A stretch of DNA of 39,029 nucleotides from a virus (Duplodnaviria; Caudoviricetes): positions 1 through 39,029 of IMG/VR virus record IMGVR_UViG_3300042997_001377. One strand, 5' to 3'. The position numbers and the translations under genes are program-made. The notes beneath the pieces are model-generated. The model did no database searches. It was not told the origin of the DNA and saw only the letters and a program-made list of their open reading frames with translations. Every line of letters begins with the position of its first letter. Within the stretch, counting starts at the first letter, position 1. Of the stretch, positions 4,011 through 37,553 are shown one piece after another.

Positions 4011-5471
4011 ATGAATGATGTAGTTGCATTAGAGCAGTTAAGAGTAGTCCAGGCGAAATTAATGTCAAGTTGTATGACTTTTACAAAATACTTCTTTAAA
4101 AAGCGTTATGGAAGGAGTTTTGTAGTTAATAGTCATCACGAGATAATATGTGATGCATTGGATAAGGTAATTAGGGGCGATATAAAGAAGCTTTGCATAA
4201 GTATAGCTCCACGATATGGAAAAACGGAATTAGCGGTTAAAAACTTCATTGCATTAGGTTTAGCGCATAATCCGAGTAGTAAGTTTATACATTTGAGTTA
4301 TTCTCAGAGTTTGGCTTTTGATAATAGTGAAAGTGCGAGAGATTTCGTAGGGAGTGAGGATTTTAATACAATATTTCCTTATGTTGAAATAAGCAAGACA
4401 AGTGCTAGTAAAAATAAGTGGCATACTACGAGAGGTGGTGGAGTGTATGCAACTGCAACGGGTGGGCAGATTACAGGTTTTGGTGCAGGTGAAGTTGATA
4501 GAGAGATTTTCGAAAATTTACCCGAACAGACAAAAGTATTTGCTGGGGCGATTATTATCGATGATGCATTGAAACCTGATGATGCTCTTTCGGATTTAAA
4601 GAGGCAAAGAGTAAATGAGAGGTTTGAAACTACAATTAGGTCGAGAACTAACAGTAGGGAAACACCGATTATAGTAATTGGGCAAAGATTGCACTCAAAT
4701 GACTTAATTGGCTATTTAAAGGAAACTGAAGAAGAAGAATGGACTTTTATTGATATTCCATGCATTACTGTCGATGAATACGGAAATGAACACGCATTGT
4801 GGGAATTTAAGCAAACATTGGCTGAATTGAACCAAATTAGACAAATTGACGAGAATATCTTTGAAACACAGTATCAACAGAATCCACAAGACTTAGTTGG
4901 CAAGTTATTACCGTTACAATCATTACAATTCTATAATTTTGATAACATACCAATAAGCTCTATCGTATTTAAGTTTGCAGTAGGCGATCCAGCAAACACA
5001 GGTGGTGATTATTATTCTATTCCATTTATGCACGTTGCGATTATTGAAGGTAAACTTTTGTGTTTTGTTAAAGGAATTATTCATTCAAAAGAAGGAATTG
5101 AAATTATTAATGAAAAATTAATCGATAAGAGTAGAGAGCATTTTATAGAAGAAGTGTTTTTAGAGGTTAATGGAATAGGGGCTGCTGCTTTTATGTTATT
5201 AAAGCGCGATATGTCAAATAATACAAAAGTTAAACCATTTACGGTTACTATGCCAAAAGAGGCAAGAATTTTGAGTAATAGTGAATTTATTAAGAAACAC
5301 TTTATATTTGACGAAAACTATCAAAGAAATGTTGAATATTCAAGATTTATTAATCATGTTACAAGTTATGAGAGAGAAGGGCAAAATACTCATAAGAAAG
5401 ATGCTATTGATAGTTTAGCTAGTGCTGCAAACATTTTGAAAATTAAATATAAAACCTTGTTATATGGATAA
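4011..5471 (+). CDS. terL: Terminase large subunit
   Basis: Walker A APRYGKT, Walker B IIIDD, QRLH, YQQNP, nuclease DPA and KDAIDSL. Confidence 0.95.
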   Translation: MNDVVALEQLRVVQAKLMSSCMTFTKYFFKKRYGRSFVVNSHHEIICDALDKVIRGDIKKLCISIAPRYGKTELAVKNFIALGLAHNPSSKFIHLSYSQSLAFDNSESARDFVGSEDFNTIFPYVEISKTSASKNKWHTTRGGGVYATATGGQITGFGAGEVDREIFENLPEQTKVFAGAIIIDDALKPDDALSDLKRQRVNERFETTIRSRTNSRETPIIVIGQRLHSNDLIGYLKETEEEEWTFIDIPCITVDEYGNEHALWEFKQTLAELNQIRQIDENIFETQYQQNPQDLVGKLLPLQSLQFYNFDNIPISSIVFKFAVGDPANTGGDYYSIPFMHVAIIEGKLLCFVKGIIHSKEGIEIINEKLIDKSREHFIEEVFLEVNGIGAAAFMLLKRDMSNNTKVKPFTVTMPKEARILSNSEFIKKHFIFDENYQRNVEYSRFINHVTSYEREGQNTHKKDAIDSLASAANILKIKYKTLLYG

Positions 5472-6411
5472 GATAATAATTTACATAAGCAATTACAATC
5501 GAATTGGTGGAGTAGAAACGTTTGTCAATAATTTTATTAAGAGATTACATACGCATTATGATATAACTTTAATGTATGATAATGTAGATACTTTGGAATT
5601 AGTGTTAAGTATATTTGAATATTGTAATTTTGAAAAAATAATGCCTAAAGTTAAGTATAAATGTGATTATTTTATTTGTTCTTCTGCTTGGGGTTATGAG
5701 CCATACGATCAAATAGATGCTAAAAAGTATATACAAATGGTACATGCTGATTATGGATATTACATTAAAGGTTGGAATTTTAGTTATAATAAACACAAGA
5801 AAGTAACGCATCATGTTTGCGTAGGGCAATTAGTTGCTGATAGCTTTGAAAAAGCAACTAAATTAAAATGTGATGCAATTATATATAATTTGTTAGATAA
5901 AAATGTAGTTCCTGTTGCTAAAGTTAATGGTAAGAAATTGCAGTTAGTAACTTTATCGAGGTTAAGTGGCGAAAAAGGTTTTGACAGAATGGTTAAATTT
6001 GCAGAACAAATACCTTGTGATTATGAATGGAACGTATGGGGTAATATAACTGGTATTTGGGCGCAGGCAATAGTTAAGAAATTTAAGCATTTACCTAAAG
6101 TAAAGTTCAATGGAATAACTACAAAGCCTTACAATGAAATTGCTAAAGCTGATTATTTGGTGCAATTAAGTGATACAGAAGGTTATTGTTATAGTGTTAT
6201 TGAGGCTTTACAAATGAATACTCCTTGTATTATTACTCCGTTTACAAGTGGCAATGAACAAATAAAGCATAAAAAAAATGGATATATTATTAATTTTGAA
6301 GTAAAAAATATTAATTTTGACGAAATTATTAATAAAATTCCAAAAGTAGATAGCTTTGTTGAAAATAGTACAGAGCAAGATTGGATAACATTTTTAAATA
6401 AAATAAGATGA
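5464..6411 (+). CDS. GT-B fold glycosyltransferase (GT4 / Glycos_transf_1-like)
   Basis: GGVET N-terminus, SRLSGEKG, SDTEGYCYSVIEAL (ExxxxxxxE motif). Confidence 0.9.
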   Translation: MDKIIIYISNYNRIGGVETFVNNFIKRLHTHYDITLMYDNVDTLELVLSIFEYCNFEKIMPKVKYKCDYFICSSAWGYEPYDQIDAKKYIQMVHADYGYYIKGWNFSYNKHKKVTHHVCVGQLVADSFEKATKLKCDAIIYNLLDKNVVPVAKVNGKKLQLVTLSRLSGEKGFDRMVKFAEQIPCDYEWNVWGNITGIWAQAIVKKFKHLPKVKFNGITTKPYNEIAKADYLVQLSDTEGYCYSVIEALQMNTPCIITPFTSGNEQIKHKKNGYIINFEVKNINFDEIINKIPKVDSFVENSTEQDWITFLNKIR

Positions 6412-6730: not shown

Positions 6731-7993
6731 ATGGCTTGGTATTCATTTGGTAAAAAAAAGAGTTCTCCTAAGGGTTATGCCGAGTTGCAAAACGATGGCG
6801 CATGGTTAAGTTATTTTAATCAGTATATGCAAAATGCAAATAATGATAAACTTGTTAAATTTGACCAGGACAGGGCGTATGAATTAGCTAATACTATTGC
6901 TGAAATATTTATACCTATTGATGCTATTGCTGAAAGGTGTGCTAATATTAGGTATGATATTATAAATAAAACAACGCAAGAAATAATAACACCTACTGGC
7001 AATTTAAAAAGGCTATTAGACACTCCGAATCCTTTAGATAAGCTAAGCGATGTTATTTATCAAGAAGTTTTTAGTAAGTTATCGGATGGCAATAGTTATT
7101 TTTATACAAAAACAGCTGAAAGTATTGTAAATCCTACTTATGATAATATAAGTAATATTTGGGTATTAAGACCTAACTTAACTAAGCCTGTATTAAAAAA
7201 ACAAATATCTAATCCGTTTTTAATGAAAACGATGGCTGATATTGTAGATTTTTATAAAACGTTCTTTTTTTATGAGCATAAATTACAACCTAGATATGTA
7301 CTTCATAATACAGCTTTAGGTATTACACAAAGTGGAACTGGTAAAAGTCCTTTATTTGCTTGTGAAAAAAACATCAATAACATATTAGCAGTATATCAAG
7401 CAAGGTATAATGTTTATGCTAAAAACGGTAATGCAGGTATATTGGCAAAAGCTCCTGTTGGTGGTGGTGGCGCATCTTTACAAGAAGCTATTGATCCTAT
7501 TACAAGAGATACAATGCTTAAAGATTTACAAGACAGAAATGGATTGATAGGTGATAAGAATTTTATTGGAATGTCAAGTGTTCCTTTACAATTTATTAAA
7601 ACATTAGGCACAATTAAAGAATTAGAGCCATTTGATGAAACATTAGAAAACGCTATTAAAATTGCTGGTGTATTTGGAGTAAATAAAGAGTTGATACCTA
7701 AAAAAGATAATGCAACATTTAGTAATCAAATGATTGCAGAAAAAAGTTTTTGGCAAAACGTAATTAAGGGAACAGCTTATGATGTAGCAAAAACTTTAAA
7801 TAAGGTTTTTTACTTACCTGAAGAATGGACTTTTGAGCCTAACTTTAGTGGTATTGAAGCATTACAAGAAGATAAAAAAGCTGGTTTTGAAGCAGATGGA
7901 TTAATGATTGACAACTTAGATAAGTTAAAAGCAAACGGAATAGACATGAACCAAGCATATTTAAAAATACAAGAAAGGTACAATGGAAAATAA
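6731..7993 (+). CDS. HK97-family portal protein
   Basis: LLDTPNPLD, DGNSYFY, GKSPL, IAGVFGV motifs; gene position. Confidence 0.9.
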   Translation: MAWYSFGKKKSSPKGYAELQNDGAWLSYFNQYMQNANNDKLVKFDQDRAYELANTIAEIFIPIDAIAERCANIRYDIINKTTQEIITPTGNLKRLLDTPNPLDKLSDVIYQEVFSKLSDGNSYFYTKTAESIVNPTYDNISNIWVLRPNLTKPVLKKQISNPFLMKTMADIVDFYKTFFFYEHKLQPRYVLHNTALGITQSGTGKSPLFACEKNINNILAVYQARYNVYAKNGNAGILAKAPVGGGGASLQEAIDPITRDTMLKDLQDRNGLIGDKNFIGMSSVPLQFIKTLGTIKELEPFDETLENAIKIAGVFGVNKELIPKKDNATFSNQMIAEKSFWQNVIKGTAYDVAKTLNKVFYLPEEWTFEPNFSGIEALQEDKKAGFEADGLMIDNLDKLKANGIDMNQAYLKIQERYNGK

Positions 7994-27769: not shown

Positions 27770-27892
27770 ATGAGCTATTCAAACTATCAAAGAATTAAAA
27801 GAATTTTAAATTTCTATCATTCAAGAGGAACGAATAAAGAAAGCGTAAATTCTGTTTATCGTAAAATTATAAAACAAAAATTAGAAAAATGA
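27770..27892 (+). CDS. Small basic protein (40 aa, MSYSNYQRIKRILNFY...)
   Basis: Manual translation; ATGA overlap with the next gene. Confidence 0.55.
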   Translation: MSYSNYQRIKRILNFYHSRGTNKESVNSVYRKIIKQKLEK

Positions 27893-28395
27893 CAACAGCC
27901 GAAAACAACAATGGCAATAACTTATTATTAATAGCTATTATAACAGCTTTAATAGCTGCAATAGTATTGACTTCTTGCGGATCACGAAAAGTACAGAAAT
28001 CAGAAACAAAAGAACAAGAGCAAAAAAGTGAAAAAATTACTCTCGAAACTGAAACGATAGTAACAGACAACACTAAAATAATTGATACTTCTACAACTGA
28101 TGAAATTGAGATAGTTCCTGTTGATAATACTTTACCTATTACAGTTAATGGAAAAAAATACACAAATAGCCGTATTAAGTGGAAAAAAACTAAAAACAAT
28201 ATAAGTGTTGCAAAAGATGTAAAAGTCCAACACAAAGCACAAAAAGAGGGTTTAGTGATGGTTAAAAGAAACAAAATAATAGAAGTAAAACAAACTGAAC
28301 GTAAAGAATCTTATTGGTGGCTATTATGGTTATTACTTTTAATACCTATTTATTTTGGATATAAAAAATATAAAGATAATTTACCATTTATATAA
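27889..28395 (+). CDS. Lipoprotein with C-terminal TM; candidate unimolecular spanin
   Basis: Lipobox LTSC plus C-terminal WWLLWLLLLIPIYFGY. Confidence 0.65.
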   Translation: MTTAENNNGNNLLLIAIITALIAAIVLTSCGSRKVQKSETKEQEQKSEKITLETETIVTDNTKIIDTSTTDEIEIVPVDNTLPITVNGKKYTNSRIKWKKTKNNISVAKDVKVQHKAQKEGLVMVKRNKIIEVKQTERKESYWWLLWLLLLIPIYFGYKKYKDNLPFI

Positions 28396-28406
28396 AAATA
28401 AATTTT

Positions 28407-28495
28407 TACATTTGAAAATTCATAATAGTTTAGTTTGGTTAATTAATCCCCTATCGTGGTTTGTGGTGTACGCAGACGTAGATAGGGGATTTTTT
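28407..28495 (+). ncRNA. Candidate ~75-nt small RNA (promoter, anti-start-site seed, terminator)
   Basis: TACATTTG 28407-28414; seed 28421-28437; 11-bp stem 28445-28455/28481-28491 with inner G.U stem and U-tract. Confidence 0.55.
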
Positions 28496-28496
28496 A

Positions 28497-28745
28497 TTAA
28501 TAATTACATTTTACATCACCAACTGCTCCCTGATGTCCAGGTAAATCAATTACCTTTATTTCACCTGTACAGTTTTTCTTCATTTTCATTTTGGTAATTG
28601 GAGTTTGTAATACGTTAAAGAAAACCACTTCAACTGCTACTCCGCAATTACAATCTGTATTAGTTTCATTTGTAGGAGCATCATCTCCTGTTGAACAGCT
28701 AATTGACATTACAGCCAATGCTAAAATTAAAATTGTTTTTTTCAT
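28497..28745 (-). CDS. Small Cys-containing lipoprotein
   Basis: MKK, hydrophobic stretch, then SISC lipobox. Confidence 0.75.
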   Translation of the reverse strand: MKKTILILALAVMSISCSTGDDAPTNETNTDCNCGVAVEVVFFNVLQTPITKMKMKKNCTGEIKVIDLPGHQGAVGDVKCNY

Positions 28746-29002
28746 AATATTATTTGTTTTTCTAATAATTCTTTACAATCTTTTATAGTATATATACCCT
28801 GTTGGCTATTATCTAACGCATAAACTCTAATATTATCATCAGCATATAGACCTAATGAATTTAACCATCTACTATTATTCATACTTCTAAAAAATACAGG
28901 TTCAAATGCATTTTCAGAAATATACCATAATAAATCACCATCTTCATCTACTAATTTATCATGGTCAATGTATTCTTTCAAAACTCCAAATGTTGTACTC
29001 AT
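28742..29002 (-). CDS. Hypothetical protein
   Basis: ORF track; overlapping stop and start. Confidence 0.7.
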   Translation of the reverse strand: MSTTFGVLKEYIDHDKLVDEDGDLLWYISENAFEPVFFRSMNNSRWLNSLGLYADDNIRVYALDNSQQGIYTIKDCKELLEKQIIL

Positions 29003-29004
29003 AA

Positions 29005-29244
29005 TTAATTAAATTTAAGGTTAAATAGTTTATCGTAATCACTTTTTGCATCTATTAGTAATATTGCTTTTTGAGCTATTGCACTTTCAAGATACTTTAT
29101 GCAGATTAATTTCTGCTTTTCAAAGTTTTCGCTTCCTAATTCAGAATTATAATAATCATTGTAATGAACTATAAAATTCTTGTAATCGTTTTCTAATTGG
29201 TTGTAAGCAATGTAATGTTCGGTTGATAAAAATTTGTCTTTCAT
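29005..29244 (-). CDS. Hypothetical protein
   Basis: ORF track. Confidence 0.65.
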   Translation of the reverse strand: MKDKFLSTEHYIAYNQLENDYKNFIVHYNDYYNSELGSENFEKQKLICIKYLESAIAQKAILLIDAKSDYDKLFNLKFN

Positions 29245-29594: not shown

Positions 29595-30494
29595 TTAAAA
29601 TGTTGGTTTACTTTTTGGTGCTTCTACAATTTGATTGTCTAAAGATAAAGTATAAGGAAGCCAATCTTTATTAACTGATATGCCAAATGCTTCCCATTTT
29701 TTACCTCTACCTCTTTGACAAGTAACACTTGAGAAACTTCCTTCATCTTTAATAATAACAACCGTTTCACATTTTTGTTGTAAAATAGTTCCTAAATGAC
29801 CTCTAGCTTTGTCTTGTCCAGGATTAAGGTGTAGCACTCCTGTTATGTGAGCTTTACTTAATGTTGAGTATTTCATTAAAGACTGAGTAAATTCAGTTGA
29901 TTCAACCAAGTCGTTAAAATTATCAAGCATATCAACATAACCATCAATAGAAACTACTCCTAATTTATTTCTATATTCACTTTCCATAAACAGCCATTTA
30001 AGATAATCCCTTCTAATTTTAGCATTGTGTTCACGCAAGTTTATTGCTATGTAGTTATCAGGAATTACAGGACTTTGTGGTGTTCCATACATTTTGCATA
30101 TCCTATCTGCGCCTAATCGTGAATAGTAAGCATCTTGCTCGGTGTCTAAATCTATAATGTATTTATCTCTAAGATTATGACCTTTAATATCAGAAGAATA
30201 GTTTACGCTGTTACCATCAAAACAACAACCTAATAGCAAAGATTTAAGCCAGGATTTCCTTGCTTTTTCTTCACCTTTAATCATTGAAATGTTACCAAAA
30301 GTACCAAATATTAAATGATTAAATTCTCCATTGTAAGCTATATCATCATAGCCTATTGAGATTGCTAATTGCGGTTTACTTACTTTGCTTTTTAAGTCAA
30401 GTGTTGATAGTTTATGTATCTCACTAAAATCAACATCTAAACTATCTAATGCTTGTTTAAGCTGTACCGTTGGTATATCTATTTTAAATTCCAT
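29595..30494 (-). CDS. AAA_25/RecA-like P-loop ATPase (putative helicase)
   Basis: GEEKARKS variant Walker A, DTEQ, SIDG, VLHLN, RGHLG. Confidence 0.8.
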   Translation of the reverse strand: MEFKIDIPTVQLKQALDSLDVDFSEIHKLSTLDLKSKVSKPQLAISIGYDDIAYNGEFNHLIFGTFGNISMIKGEEKARKSWLKSLLLGCCFDGNSVNYSSDIKGHNLRDKYIIDLDTEQDAYYSRLGADRICKMYGTPQSPVIPDNYIAINLREHNAKIRRDYLKWLFMESEYRNKLGVVSIDGYVDMLDNFNDLVESTEFTQSLMKYSTLSKAHITGVLHLNPGQDKARGHLGTILQQKCETVVIIKDEGSFSSVTCQRGRGKKWEAFGISVNKDWLPYTLSLDNQIVEAPKSKPTF

Positions 30495-30495
30495 A

Positions 30496-31116
30496 TTAAA
30501 ATAATTTAGTTTGATTTGTATGGTTTTTTATTCTTTGAATTGCTTTGTCGTAATATTCTGAATCAAGTTCACAAGCTGTTAAATCAAATCCATAATCGTG
30601 ACAAGCTATTGCAATACTTCCTGAACCTAAATGAGTATCGAGTATTTTGTCGCCTTGTTTTGTTTTACAATATTCAAACATATATTTATAAACATAAATA
30701 GGTTTTTGTGTTGGATGAAAACGTTCTAAATCTGTACTTGACTTTTTCATTATTTTAGCAGGTTTATCAAAAGAAGTCCAAACTAACTCACAAGCTGATA
30801 AAGTTGGCATAGCTTGATTTTTATCCCAACAAACAAATCCTCTTGTATTAGGTAAGTATTCAAAAAAATAATTAGCACCAAAAACAACTTGATTTTTAGA
30901 TACTCTAAATAATTCATTCCAATATTCTTTTGTAGGTAACACATCCCATTTTTTATCTACATATAAAAGTCTTGAAGGGTCATCTTTTCTTTTACCACCA
31001 CCACTACTTAACCTATCACCAAGTCCATAAGGTGGGTCTACAATAGCCAAATCAAAATGCTTATCAGGATAACGAGCCATTAACTCCATATTATCCTCGT
31101 TAGTTATATTTAGCAT
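30496..31116 (-). CDS. Orphan amino DNA methyltransferase (N6/N4, beta class)
   Basis: DPPY, HPTQKP, DTHLGSGS. Confidence 0.92.
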   Translation of the reverse strand: MLNITNEDNMELMARYPDKHFDLAIVDPPYGLGDRLSSGGGKRKDDPSRLLYVDKKWDVLPTKEYWNELFRVSKNQVVFGANYFFEYLPNTRGFVCWDKNQAMPTLSACELVWTSFDKPAKIMKKSSTDLERFHPTQKPIYVYKYMFEYCKTKQGDKILDTHLGSGSIAIACHDYGFDLTACELDSEYYDKAIQRIKNHTNQTKLF

Positions 31117-32679: not shown

Positions 32680-33051
32680 TTAGAAAGGCAAATCATCTTC
32701 TTCATATTTTTGCCCTAAAGGTTGAGTATATTCTTTTTTACCTTTATACTTTTCTTCTTTAATAGTTTCTGCACCAGCTTCTACTTTCTCTATTTTCCAA
32801 CATTCTAAAGTATTAAAAGCAATTTCTTTACCTTCTTTATTAGTCCATAAGCGACCTTTAATATTCAAATGTACTTTTACTTCTTGACCTGGTTTATAGT
32901 TGCTTAAAGTATCGCATTTATCTTTAATAACTTGAAGTTGTAAATACTGTTTGTACTCCTCTTGAGTTTCAACAATAAATTCTCTTTTTGAAAATGTATC
33001 TGTTACATTTTGCGTTTCACCTATTGAGTGAATTTTTACATTTAATTCCAT
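32680..33051 (-). CDS. DUF3127-family single-stranded DNA-binding protein
   Basis: FSKREFIVET...GRLW...FNTLECWKI; acidic tail DDLPF. Confidence 0.85.
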   Translation of the reverse strand: MELNVKIHSIGETQNVTDTFSKREFIVETQEEYKQYLQLQVIKDKCDTLSNYKPGQEVKVHLNIKGRLWTNKEGKEIAFNTLECWKIEKVEAGAETIKEEKYKGKKEYTQPLGQKYEEDDLPF

Positions 33052-33053
33052 AA

Positions 33054-33200
33054 TTATTTAATTTTTAAGTTGGTTAATTCGTTTTGTAAATTGTGTAAAT
33101 AATGATTAGTAAAAATAGTTTCTTTTAATTCTTTTGTTTTTGCAATTTCATCTCGCAAATAACTAATGTAATCTTCTTTGTCTTGTTTGTTAAATTTCAT
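33054..33200 (-). CDS. Hypothetical 48-aa protein
   Basis: Manual translation (MKFNKQDKE...). Confidence 0.5.
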   Translation of the reverse strand: MKFNKQDKEDYISYLRDEIAKTKELKETIFTNHYLHNLQNELTNLKIK

Positions 33201-34557: not shown

Positions 34558-34665
34558 CCCGACAATTTACAAAGGCTTATCCGTTGTGCCAATATTGGCT
34601 TTGAGGCAATGCAAAATGTCGGGATTAAATTTTATGTTTGTGAACGAATAAGCATTACAAATATA
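34558..34665 (-). promoter_or_regulatory. Promoter with structured leader (cassette B)
   Basis: TATATTTG 34665-34658; 14-position stem 34623-34610/34571-34558. Confidence 0.6.
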
Positions 34666-34670
34666 CAAAA

Positions 34671-35495
34671 TTAAATTTGATTTAATCTAATTGACTTATA
34701 ATATTCTACGGCTAAAGGAATTTTAGATAAAAGAAGTTGCTCTTTTTCAATATCCCTTTTTATAATAAAACTCTTTACTCTTTCTTCCTTTGTATAATTT
34801 CCGTTGCTAAAAATTAAATTTTGTTCTAACTGTTTAAATAATCTTTGCATAATTGGATTTTCATCATCTAAAATTCCATATTTATTTCGCAATTTCCATT
34901 TTTCATTTTCTAAAATATGCTCAGGACAATCAGTTAAAGTATAATGCAAATGAAATTCATCAGCATCATAAAGATACATATAAGCGCGACCTTGCCATTC
35001 ATATATAGTAGATAAATCTCCATTCATAAAAGTTAAAGGCGACCAGGAACTTTTTATATCTTTAATTACTTTTACTCCATTAATTGTGCAAACTATATCA
35101 GCTTCTCCAGTAATATGCCCAATAGTTTTACGTTCTGCATTTTTTTCGTAAATAGAATTTTCAATTTCAGAAACTAAAATAATTCCATCATCTTCATTAA
35201 AATTTCCTTTCTCAACATATTTACTTGATAATTCTTCATAAAAACCTTTTTCGTTAAATAGCCATGTTTTTTCAATAAAACTTTTAGCTGTGTCACTTAG
35301 TGTAGGTTTTGCATTTTCTTTGCTTAAAAGTAGCTCAAAATCGATTTTTTGCTTATCTGTTAATGGCTTTCCTTCTCCAGCATCACGAAGTTTATAATCT
35401 GCTAAAGTTTGTTTTTGATTTTCAGTTAAAACAATTCCGCGACTTTCAGTTAAAAGCGCACCAATCGATGATGCGCGAAATAATATTTTTTCCAT
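34671..35495 (-). CDS. YqaJ / lambda-exo-like PD-(D/E)XK exonuclease
   Basis: FRASSIG, GEADI, DIKSSW, YEWQGRAYM. Confidence 0.85.
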   Translation of the reverse strand: MEKILFRASSIGALLTESRGIVLTENQKQTLADYKLRDAGEGKPLTDKQKIDFELLLSKENAKPTLSDTAKSFIEKTWLFNEKGFYEELSSKYVEKGNFNEDDGIILVSEIENSIYEKNAERKTIGHITGEADIVCTINGVKVIKDIKSSWSPLTFMNGDLSTIYEWQGRAYMYLYDADEFHLHYTLTDCPEHILENEKWKLRNKYGILDDENPIMQRLFKQLEQNLIFSNGNYTKEERVKSFIIKRDIEKEQLLLSKIPLAVEYYKSIRLNQI

Positions 35496-35509
35496 AATAG
35501 TTTAGTTTG

Positions 35510-36109
35510 TTATAGTTTGTTTAAAGTATTTAAAGTATATTCATAAAATTTTGGATTTCTACCAAATACAGCTTTTTTTATTGCATCAAATTTTTCTGCA
35601 TCAATTTTTTCTTTTTTACTTTCAAAAATTGCCTCTAGGTTAATCCAATCTAATTCCGTAAGTTCAGCTTTTAATGGCACAGGCGCAGAAGTTTTCCTTT
35701 GATCGTTGTCAATATCATCTTCATCGGTTGCAATATGAAAATATTTTAATAAAAAATATCTTTCCGCATAAGTTAGAGCAGATCCAACACCTTTATCCCA
35801 ATCATTTTGACCGTTTGCGCCAAAAAGATTTTCGTCTTTTTCTCCACTTTCAACATCAATCCAAGTAAATTTCATCATTATTTTAGATAAAATTTCGGAT
35901 TTACTTCCTTTAGCAGTTGAATAGTCTTGCCTTGTATTTTCAATAGATAAAACTTCTTGCTTTAAAAGCAGTCCTAAATCATTCATCATTGGCTTAATTT
36001 CGCCAAGCAATTTATCACCTGTAACATATTTATAATTATATGTTGCTTTGTCTTTGCCTAATCCGTTAATCCTTTTTTGAATAGTCAATAATTTTTCGTA
36101 AATTTTCAT
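35510..36109 (-). CDS. ERF-family single-strand annealing protein
   Basis: GSALTYAERYFLLKYFHIATDEDD. Confidence 0.9.
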   Translation of the reverse strand: MKIYEKLLTIQKRINGLGKDKATYNYKYVTGDKLLGEIKPMMNDLGLLLKQEVLSIENTRQDYSTAKGSKSEILSKIMMKFTWIDVESGEKDENLFGANGQNDWDKGVGSALTYAERYFLLKYFHIATDEDDIDNDQRKTSAPVPLKAELTELDWINLEAIFESKKEKIDAEKFDAIKKAVFGRNPKFYEYTLNTLNKL

Positions 36110-36124
36110 AATAGTTTGTTTAAG

Positions 36125-36292
36125 TTATTTTTGTATTCTAAATATTTCTAAATCTAAATTCCATTTTTTTTGCAAAAATTCCTTTTGCTTTTTTGGTACT
36201 GACATAGGTAAAGTTACCGATACATCTTCCAAAAAAACTTTTGGTCTACCACCTTTATTCTTTTCCTGGTTTTCGTTTGTTTCTTTTTTCAT
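36125..36292 (-). CDS. Small putative DNA-binding protein (55 aa, GGRPK motif)
   Basis: Manual translation MKKETNENQEKNKGGRPKVFLEDVSVTLPMSVPK... Confidence 0.6.
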   Translation of the reverse strand: MKKETNENQEKNKGGRPKVFLEDVSVTLPMSVPKKQKEFLQKKWNLDLEIFRIQK

Positions 36293-36580: not shown

Positions 36581-36799
36581 TTATTCTAAATTAAATAATT
36601 CAGTTATATTTTCTACATCTAAAATTTTATTTGAAGTAAAAGATAATATCATAAGAGCTTCATCTATATTTAATTCAATCCAATAATTTTTTGTGGCTAG
36701 TGCTTTTAAACATTTTTTTACAGAAGTTGGAAATTGATTTTTATAATTTTCTAATTTTTCCAAATTTTCTTTTTTCATTTTTTCTAATAATGTTTTCAT
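36581..36799 (-). CDS. Hypothetical protein
   Basis: ORF track. Confidence 0.65.
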   Translation of the reverse strand: MKTLLEKMKKENLEKLENYKNQFPTSVKKCLKALATKNYWIELNIDEALMILSFTSNKILDVENITELFNLE

Positions 36800-36822
36800 A
36801 ATTTTTTAGTTTAAAATTTATA

Positions 36823-37020
36823 TTAATCTCCGCTATCTATTCTATATATAACTTTTACTATTTCATTTTCTTGGATCGCTTCAAAACTATATTCGTTTAA
36901 ACAATTGCCTATATTTTGAGAACTTGCTGAATTATCAATTCTATTTTCTTGCAATTTCTTATATAGTTCTCTATCTTCATTTGACCATCCATTTGCGTAA
37001 CCTAAATTTATTGTTTTCAT
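36823..37020 (-). CDS. Hypothetical protein
   Basis: ORF track. Confidence 0.65.
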   Translation of the reverse strand: MKTINLGYANGWSNEDRELYKKLQENRIDNSASSQNIGNCLNEYSFEAIQENEIVKVIYRIDSGD

Positions 37021-37211
37021 ATTAAATTGTTTTTATAGTTTATAATTTCATTTTTAACTTCATTCCAGTATTTTAAATCTTTATATTCAATAATTTCTAA
37101 TATTTCACTAACTACATTTAATGCAGACAAAATACCTTCTCTTTCAGCTTGATTTGTATTCCAATAAGTAAATTTTTGAATCAGCTGTATTGCTTTTTCT
37201 TGTGTTTTCAT
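37017..37211 (-). CDS. Hypothetical protein
   Basis: KAIQL...V.EIL...YWNEVKNEI motif typical of small Bacteroidota-phage proteins. Confidence 0.7.
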   Translation of the reverse strand: MKTQEKAIQLIQKFTYWNTNQAEREGILSALNVVSEILEIIEYKDLKYWNEVKNEIINYKNNLI

Positions 37212-37229
37212 AATTTTTTAGTTTTTAGT

Positions 37230-37553
37230 TTATAAATTTTTTCCAATTTTATCTTCTAGTAATTTTTGTAATTTTTCTTTGCAGTTTGGTAATAGTTTAC
37301 CTTTTGAGTTATATAAATCGTGTACGTTAATTGCGAAAAGTATAAAATCACATTCACCATGTTCAGGCGGATCAAAATAATTTCCATAAGAAGGTTTCCG
37401 ATATACTTCAACTTCAACTTCAAAATCTACAATAGCAATACAATTATAATCATCATCGTAAATTTCTAAATCTTTGCAATTAATATAGTCGTCAAACCAA
37501 TTATAATTTTCATTACAATAATCGTTTATAGTTTCCAAAATTAAATTTTCCAT
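37230..37553 (-). CDS. Hypothetical acidic protein
   Basis: ORF track; GNYFDPPE. Confidence 0.7.
   Translation of the reverse strand: MENLILETINDYCNENYNWFDDYINCKDLEIYDDDYNCIAIVDFEVEVEVYRKPSYGNYFDPPEHGECDFILFAINVHDLYNSKGKLLPNCKEKLQKLLEDKIGKNL

Follow-up and report, generated by a model that had tools for sequence, protein, structure and literature searches.

What does the short intergenic stretch at the end of this phage's lysis genes encode, and which messages would its product recognize? The stretch lies in the window, the whole 39,029-nucleotide piece of DNA that was analyzed, a virus record that is complete and bears direct terminal repeats. Two gene arms run toward each other (Table 1), and the unit under study sits at their point of convergence. 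The labels early and late are used here by strand and annotation. No integrase was found among the 50 window proteins scanned. The closest isolate match of the exonuclease is from Flavobacterium phage vB_FspS_tant8-1 (46%), which points to a Flavobacterium-type host. Among 50,697 records of isolated phages, there was no credible DNA match to the window, and the protein encoded just upstream of the unit was also unmatched. A glycosyltransferase gene (5464-6411; PHROG 2170) lies between the terminase and portal genes.

Table 1. Positions of the small RNA unit, its neighbors and its predicted targets in the window
Feature	Position	Strand	Basis or remark
Plus-strand arm	3035-28395	+	Terminase, portal, capsid, tail and lysis genes (PHROG annotation)
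Minus-strand arm		-	Small genes, ERF, exonuclease, HNH, NinG, SSB, replication protein, methyltransferase
Upstream gene, final gene of the late/lysis arm, lipoprotein-like by sequence	27889..28395	+	Weak PHROG matches, unknown function
Sigma-A type -7 box TAnnTTTG, TACATTTG	28407..28414	+	Predicted start 28419
Predicted 77-nt small RNA gene	28419..28495	+	Structure, conservation, Rfp18-model match
Single-stranded seed (antisense to the start codon and the bases before it)	28419..28442	+	
Intrinsic terminator	28445..28495	+	11-bp outer stem, 7-bp inner stem, U6 tail
Five-codon mini-ORF MNFQM	28406..28423	-	Arises from box plus 4-nt spacer
Final gene of the convergent minus-strand arm	28497..28745	-	Stop adjoins the terminator tail
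Best predicted target: exonuclease start	35493..35509	-	17 nt exact; duplex -24.0 kcal/mol, with folding -23.1 kcal/mol
Second predicted target: start of ERF gene 35510-36109	36105..36127	-	13 nt plus bulged extension; -19.7 / -18.6 kcal/mol
Predicted target: start of 299-aa replication-region gene 29595-30494	30492..30515	-	-18.5 kcal/mol
Predicted target: start of SSB gene 32680-33051 (PHROG 4932)	33049..33075	-	-15.9 kcal/mol
Two early-gene starts, 36799 and 37211, with a common 22-nt exact repeat	36791..37234	-	-14.6 and -15.0 kcal/mol

The sequence-only reading of this DNA had proposed a plus-strand small RNA (sRNA) gene with a seed antisense to start codons, a perfect -7 box before it, and a terminator hairpin whose inner pairs form on the plus strand only. 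The box is present. With TAnnTTTG located at -12 to -5 (PMC9723704), transcription is predicted to begin at 28419, which coincides exactly with the UUCAU of the seed. Upstream of the box, the window shows no evident -33 TTTG of canonical form. TAnnTTTG is the sigma-A type box of the host and was found before early genes too. Folding prediction gives unpaired probabilities of 0.76-1.0 across the first 22 nt of the seed, and UUCAUA is invariant in both family alignments (A1 and A2). The hairpin at 28445-28491 folds at -29.8 kcal/mol on the plus strand (z -6.4, reached by 0 of 200 shuffles), compared to -20.6 kcal/mol on the minus strand. Its inner stem contains two U.G pairs that exist on the plus strand only, and a run of six T follows at 28490-28495. 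This terminator probably also ends the late/lysis transcript, and the seed lies within the 3' end of that presumed transcript as well. A scan for E. coli-type promoters and terminators is unsuited to this promoter type and to the long loop. Two runs contain a small share of the window, both in the form of contigs. In one of them, probably a DNA run, a single 217-nt contig spans the element at a depth of 3.8, which speaks neither for nor against transcription.

The segment 38170-38300 is gene-free and is bounded by two facing TATATTTG boxes (38171 on the plus strand and 38297 on the minus strand). It contains GGCCGGAAA in inverted copies and a hairpin with a T tail, and could be a small RNA or an origin. 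Internal minus-strand TATATTTG boxes occur at 34665 and 32669, after the exonuclease and SSB genes, respectively, each followed by an untranslated stretch of at least 70-80 nt.

Conservation was assessed in related loci that were fetched via the upstream lipoprotein-like protein, an unbiased anchor independent of the motif. Two of the 41 lipoprotein loci (L120 and L121) were truncated and excluded, and 39 were examined. Seed and terminator are present in 33 of these 39 lysis-end loci (28 distinct). TAnnTTTG stands 3-5 nt before the seed in 29 of the 33 seed-bearing loci, at exactly 4 nt in 25, and the background frequency of a box at 3-5 nt is 0.0012 per site. The two free positions of the box vary among loci. 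The other four seed-bearing loci, and two found later, have the box 11-14 nt upstream. Two of the remaining four loci end too early, one is without the CAU (L117), and one has the terminator only (L098). The cassette is intact in L097, L101 and L102 despite 325-507 nt inserted between the protein gene and the cassette. Stem sequences differ between loci while pairing is retained, and two-sided changes occur at 7 of 7 modeled pairs among 38 family members. The stem covariation score is 0.61, against 0.18 for shuffled and at most 0.22 for slid alignments, in an alignment that was fitted to the model and is made up of related sequences. The family model finds a single copy in the window, and a pattern search finds a single copy per contig in 23 of 27 related contigs. 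Very likely, the sRNA gene is real and probably functional. Conservation, box spacing and covariation, together with a predicted likeness to the RNAs Rfp18 and FopS that is described below, bear out the proposal of a plus-strand gene with an anti-start seed.

Some relatives depart from the common form. G025, G026 and G027 were considered as sRNA-free controls and rejected, since G025 and G026 carry a variant and G027 carries one that is CAU-less. The G027 cassette (L117, ~6870-6950) has the box, a U/G-rich stretch and the terminator with no anti-AUG triplet, and may be a decayed or retargeted variant. In G022, the unit is found inside the lysis region (L301:9377-9453) on the early-gene strand, and cannot be the tail of a late transcript because that strand is opposite to the late genes. 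G024 (L305 and L306) is the sole examined relative without the seed, with the terminator alone at this place; it has an integrase and a different early module. This one case hints that the sRNA goes with non-integrating phages. On another related phage contig, a DUF805b RNA motif scores over the Rfam cut-off (L100:9149-9181).

One alternative, for which the G024 locus speaks, is that the terminator alone is functional. In that case, the "seed" would be a minus-strand start site, either the remnant of a lost gene or the start of a five-codon minigene carried on read-through transcripts. As minus-strand sequence, the seed makes a strong start site, and the MNFQM frame, noted in the sequence-only reading and present in the window, recurs in 25 of the 29 boxed loci. 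Yet the frame is disrupted in the other 4 of 29, where the spacer is 3 or 5 nt, and codon 4 is always CAA and never CAG. TAnnTTTG retains the exact promoter consensus and spacing, the U.G pairs and the U tail point to the plus strand, and the unit is also present on a bacterial chromosome, where it is multicopy, and in expressed form as Rfp18. A role for the terminator alone is very unlikely, and the mini-ORF is most likely a by-product of box plus seed.

The type of RNA to which the sRNA belongs is already published in FopS and Rfp18, and FopS has been described in one phage. Rfp18 (THC0290_N_0179) of Flavobacterium psychrophilum is an expressed RNA of 97 nt. Its predicted pairing region, positions 34-63, is the UUCAUAAU...GGUUAA stretch that precedes the terminator, and its top predicted sites span start codons (PMC9723704). 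The phage RNA resembles Rfp18 in its host group, in the UUCAUAAU...GGUUAA seed followed by an intrinsic terminator, and in predicted sites over start codons. A model built from 10 host Rfp18 loci only (R2) has its best window match at 28407-28497 (28.4 bits, E 0.0015), with the next at 16.0 bits. Over 1.12 Mb of phage and host DNA, this model gives 92.7 bits for true Rfp18, 27-40 bits for 12 family copies and at most 25.2 bits for the host background, so that the phage RNA lies far below true Rfp18. Of 41 genomes searched for the Rfp18 core, 31 match it with no more than 1 mismatch. In the G025/G026 clade, the terminator is close in sequence to that of Rfp18.

There are also clear differences. 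Rfp18 has a 5' hairpin before its 30-nt seed, with a leader of ~45-50 nt, whereas the leader is 4 nt in the window RNA and 3-5 or 11-14 nt in its relatives. Rfp18 is chromosomal and single copy with a nearly invariant seed; the phage RNA has a variable 24-nt seed and a different stem. The phage seed aligns to the 24-nt core of Rfp18 only with a 6-nt gap, unlike a near-invariant core. The best predicted targets of the phage RNA are phage genes, unlike those of Rfp18. Because the 5' hairpin and the invariant core are absent, the phage RNA is not filed as an Rfp18 member; it would work like Rfp18 and is probably a shortened relative. Convergence on the common Bacteroidota start-site consensus is another possible source of the likeness, because both RNAs mirror that consensus.

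The FopS family of Bacteroides thetaiotaomicron (RF04319) combines a sigma-A promoter, a single-stranded 5' seed and a terminator, and one copy is reported in a Caudovirales phage (PMC11697453). FopS-10 binds beside the susC start codon and blocks translation in vitro, with rescue by compensatory changes (PMC11697453). The phage RNA has the same plan: a sigma-A box, a length of ~65-77 nt, a single-stranded 5' seed plus terminator, and predicted pairing antisense to start codons. FopS RNAs, as described in that report, are multicopy and chromosomal, bind RbpB and target susC-type mRNAs, whereas the phage RNA is single copy per phage. The RF04319 model had no match at the sRNA element at E up to 10, and on the phage relatives it scored 15.6-24.1 bits, below membership at a gathering cut-off of 56. 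Its best window match is the reverse of a gene start (28992-29050, start 29002; E 0.12), and the predicted duplex between the start of this gene (28742-29002) and the FopS consensus has -22.4 kcal/mol. On the G029 chromosome (Paenimyroides), a similar unit has 9 matches, one of them beside prophage-like lysis genes. The copies L319, L322 and L324-L328 form a multicopy sRNA-like family with an invariant seed and variable terminators, and adjoin prophage-like lysis genes and umuC-like genes (labels assigned by eye). They would be a FopS-like family outside Bacteroides.

GibS (RF04182) and FopS have the R1 anti-start-site type of seed in common (PMC11697453). GibS is a longer RNA with two seeds, from which the phage RNA differs, and its model had no match at the sRNA element. 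At gathering score, Rfam had no match in the window and none at the element of the 13 related loci scanned; relaxing to E up to 10 gave 7 sub-threshold window matches, none credible. Flavo-1, considered as a known candidate, was not found at the element. Among phage RNAs, lambda OOP and P22 Sar are small antisense RNAs with their own promoter and terminator that lower the expression of phage genes. OOP and Sar are encoded opposite their single target. Unlike them, the phage RNA lies at a distance of 7 kb from its best targets, and many starts match it imperfectly. It is intergenic, and the opposite strand holds only the five-codon ORF, so it does not qualify as a cis-antisense RNA. In the open-licence literature, no description was found of an sRNA with which a Bacteroidota phage targets its own gene starts.

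Which starts would the seed read? The sequence-only reading had proposed a silencer of the recombination genes, and the complementarity it described is exact. The 17-mer at 28421-28437 recurs without change at 35493-35509. Read as its reverse complement, this second copy is the ATG plus the 14 bases before it of the minus-strand ORF 34671-35495, the exonuclease (PHROG 5715, E 2.7e-39). Likewise, 28419-28431 equals 36105-36117 at the start of ERF (Pfam ERF), with four further nucleotides past a one-base bulge. When pairing was ranked over all 66 window starts, the exonuclease and ERF were predicted targets 1 and 2. The length of the 17-nt repeat is by itself unremarkable because the window has 7 exact direct repeats of at least 17 nt, terminal overlap aside. 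Its placement over a start codon exceeds generic start-site composition, with P 0.5-2.7e-3 per 60 starts under position-specific start-region models that were trained either on 684 phage starts or on 31 starts of the window, for a match that was chosen beforehand from many windows. None of 400 shuffled seeds attained the observed best or top-three energy. None of 301 genomes of the host genus (that of G028) contains the exact 17-mer.

The same match is less regular in relatives. At the exonuclease start of 19 relatives, it extends over 17 nt in 1, at least 11 nt in 9, 8 nt in 2 and 5 nt or fewer in 8. G002 has the same seed, a non-matching exonuclease start and a matching ERF start. At the ERF slot, the start that follows the small regulator-like gene 36125-36292, a match of 13 nt persists in 9 of 15 close relatives, in front of two different Erf-like genes. 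A second subfamily likewise carries the 13-nt core at the gene following the regulator homologue. This retention is due in part to close kinship. In four relatives, a G-to-A change in the seed is uncompensated at this start, their best-matching one. Across 11 seed types and 24 genomes, many of them partial contigs, a phage's own seed pairs no better than the others (p 0.54), and the co-variation of seed and target, whose lack the sequence-only reading had named as refuting its proposal, thus failed to appear. The metallophosphoesterase start was considered as a common target and rejected, as it does not covary with the seed. In the second subfamily, an element with a TATATTTG box, a structured leader of ~100 nt and a terminator-like end sits between the regulator-like gene and the gene with the 13-nt match (L297:12770-12902, also L285 and L299), and is possibly a regulatory leader RNA.

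These results separate the complementarity from the function first attached to it. An RNA dedicated to silencing the Exo/ERF module would fit the two top ranks, a 17-mer beyond start-site composition and the 13-nt match before Erf-like genes in relatives. It fits poorly with the relatives that match at 5 nt or fewer and with G002. Moreover, the sRNA family is present in phages without these genes, seeds from other phages reach -23.9 kcal/mol at the ERF start, and the exonuclease and ERF start regions are alike and therefore not independent. A dedicated silencer is very unlikely, and a bias toward a whole class of starts, described next, holds without the exonuclease and ERF.

The suggestion that the RNA might also reach other A-rich start sites has turned out to be the better-supported part of the early proposal. 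In a hand-curated list of 59 ATG starts, and in a class test made after the starts had been ranked, predicted seed pairing is -10.9 kcal/mol at 30 minus-strand starts vs -6.6 kcal/mol at 29 plus-strand starts (Mann-Whitney p 5.5e-5). This early-late energy difference is reached by 0 of 500 shuffled seeds, also when the exonuclease and ERF are left out, and the top 12 of the 66 starts by pairing are all on the minus strand. Host starts, which like those of the relatives were chosen by a heuristic that favors A-rich upstream sequence, pair like late starts (-7.4 vs -6.8 kcal/mol). A pairing of -18.5 kcal/mol is reached by 0 of 578 host starts vs 3 of 66 window starts. The basis of the class bias is a start motif of the AAACT...ATTATG type; AAACT precedes 17 of the 30 early starts, 5 of the 29 late starts and 45 of the 578 host starts.

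All 12 relatives examined show the bias in the same sense, though often weakly, and they represent about four lineages. Nine of them gave p 0.000-0.066 with 0-8 of 60 shuffles; G022 gave p 0.13 (2 of 200 shuffles), G025 p 0.013 (3 of 200) and G026 p 0.08 (24 of 200). The seed of host Rfp18 separates the early and late starts of the window equally well (p 4e-6), and the class bias therefore does not show that the sRNA shaped it. The G025 and Paenimyroides seeds separate the window classes weakly or not at all (p 0.23 and 0.04).

The exact 24-nt seed was found in 0 bacterial genomes. A degenerate seed pattern found 43 stretches in bacterial genomes, mostly gene starts or chance matches, with 4 clear cases of seed plus terminator. 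In a host search with a second model (R1), at least 12 of 101 genomes had one match each, with 48 candidates scored per genome. The RNA could be real and yet act as an Rfp18 mimic on host mRNAs, mainly those of secreted and outer-membrane proteins, for example to lower receptors during infection, with matches to phage starts being secondary. Near-matches to the seed (at most 3 mismatches in 24 nt) number 21 in 121 genomes, compared to 8 for the reversed control, and most fall on start codons. SusC-type TonB-dependent receptors, the target class of FopS and Rfp18, make up 6 of the 17 proteins scanned, but these six come from 4 genomes and apparently from one or two gene groups. The seeds are untuned to phage genomes, as a host mimic would predict. 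Among 578 unselected host starts, however, the best duplex is only -16.7 kcal/mol, and signal-peptide-like N-termini, called by a crude heuristic, are not enriched (10 of 28 vs 155 of 550, p 0.40). Mimicry of Rfp18 on host messages is unlikely, though less so than the readings set aside above.

The preferred reading, to which we give about an even chance, is that of a conserved phage sRNA gene, probably related to Rfp18, whose seed pairs with early starts as a class and damps their translation. The anatomy, the conservation, the complementarity and the bias toward minus-strand recombination, replication and small early-type genes are observations. Transcription, timing and repression we infer. 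Host sigma-A polymerase would start the sRNA at 28419, and the late transcript, at its 3' end, would supply the seed as well. The RNA would then mask the AUG of early mRNAs along with the A-rich stretch before it, like FopS-10 on susC mRNA. Bacteroidota ribosomes use this A-rich stretch instead of a Shine-Dalgarno site. Pairing would lower the translation of early genes, with the exonuclease and ERF as the tightest of many targets in the lineage of the window. Head and tail genes would escape because their starts are without the AAACT...ATTATG-type motif, which would give the synthesis of late proteins an advantage over that of early ones. Transcription running on from the minus-strand arm would produce a perfect complement of the RNA that, speculatively, could serve as a sponge.

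Silencing is suggested by the example of FopS, and the sign of the effect is uncertain. It may be positive, because deletion of rfp18 lowered the mRNAs of two predicted targets, fpp1 and THC0290_0300 (PMC9723704). The phage RNA might accordingly pair with early starts and stabilize or activate them in the manner of Rfp18, whose predicted sites also cover the start-codon region, and the sigma-A box would permit expression from the start of infection. A duplex of 13-22 bp on the AUG should nevertheless hinder ribosome loading. FopS-10 represses directly (PMC11697453), whereas the Rfp18 effect is one on mRNA level and may be indirect. Activation is improbable, on a par with a dedicated Exo/ERF silencer.

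A broader view, held tentatively and well short of an even chance, is that lytic Flavobacterium phages took a host-type anti-start-codon sRNA, trimmed it down to seed and terminator, and moved it to where the late arm ends, with early genes tagged by the matching start motif and structural genes spared. One RNA would then serve as a class-wide switch of translation from early to late. If this is true, the start tag of the early genes would also expose them to the host's own Rfp18. The timing of phage gene expression is usually attributed to transcription; an RNA that reads a start tag common to a whole class of phage genes would be a simple post-transcriptional switch, acting in a phylum whose ribosomes use no Shine-Dalgarno sites. 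The link to Rfp18 opens these ideas to tests in a tractable Flavobacterium and prompts the question whether the host's Rfp18 acts on phage early genes.
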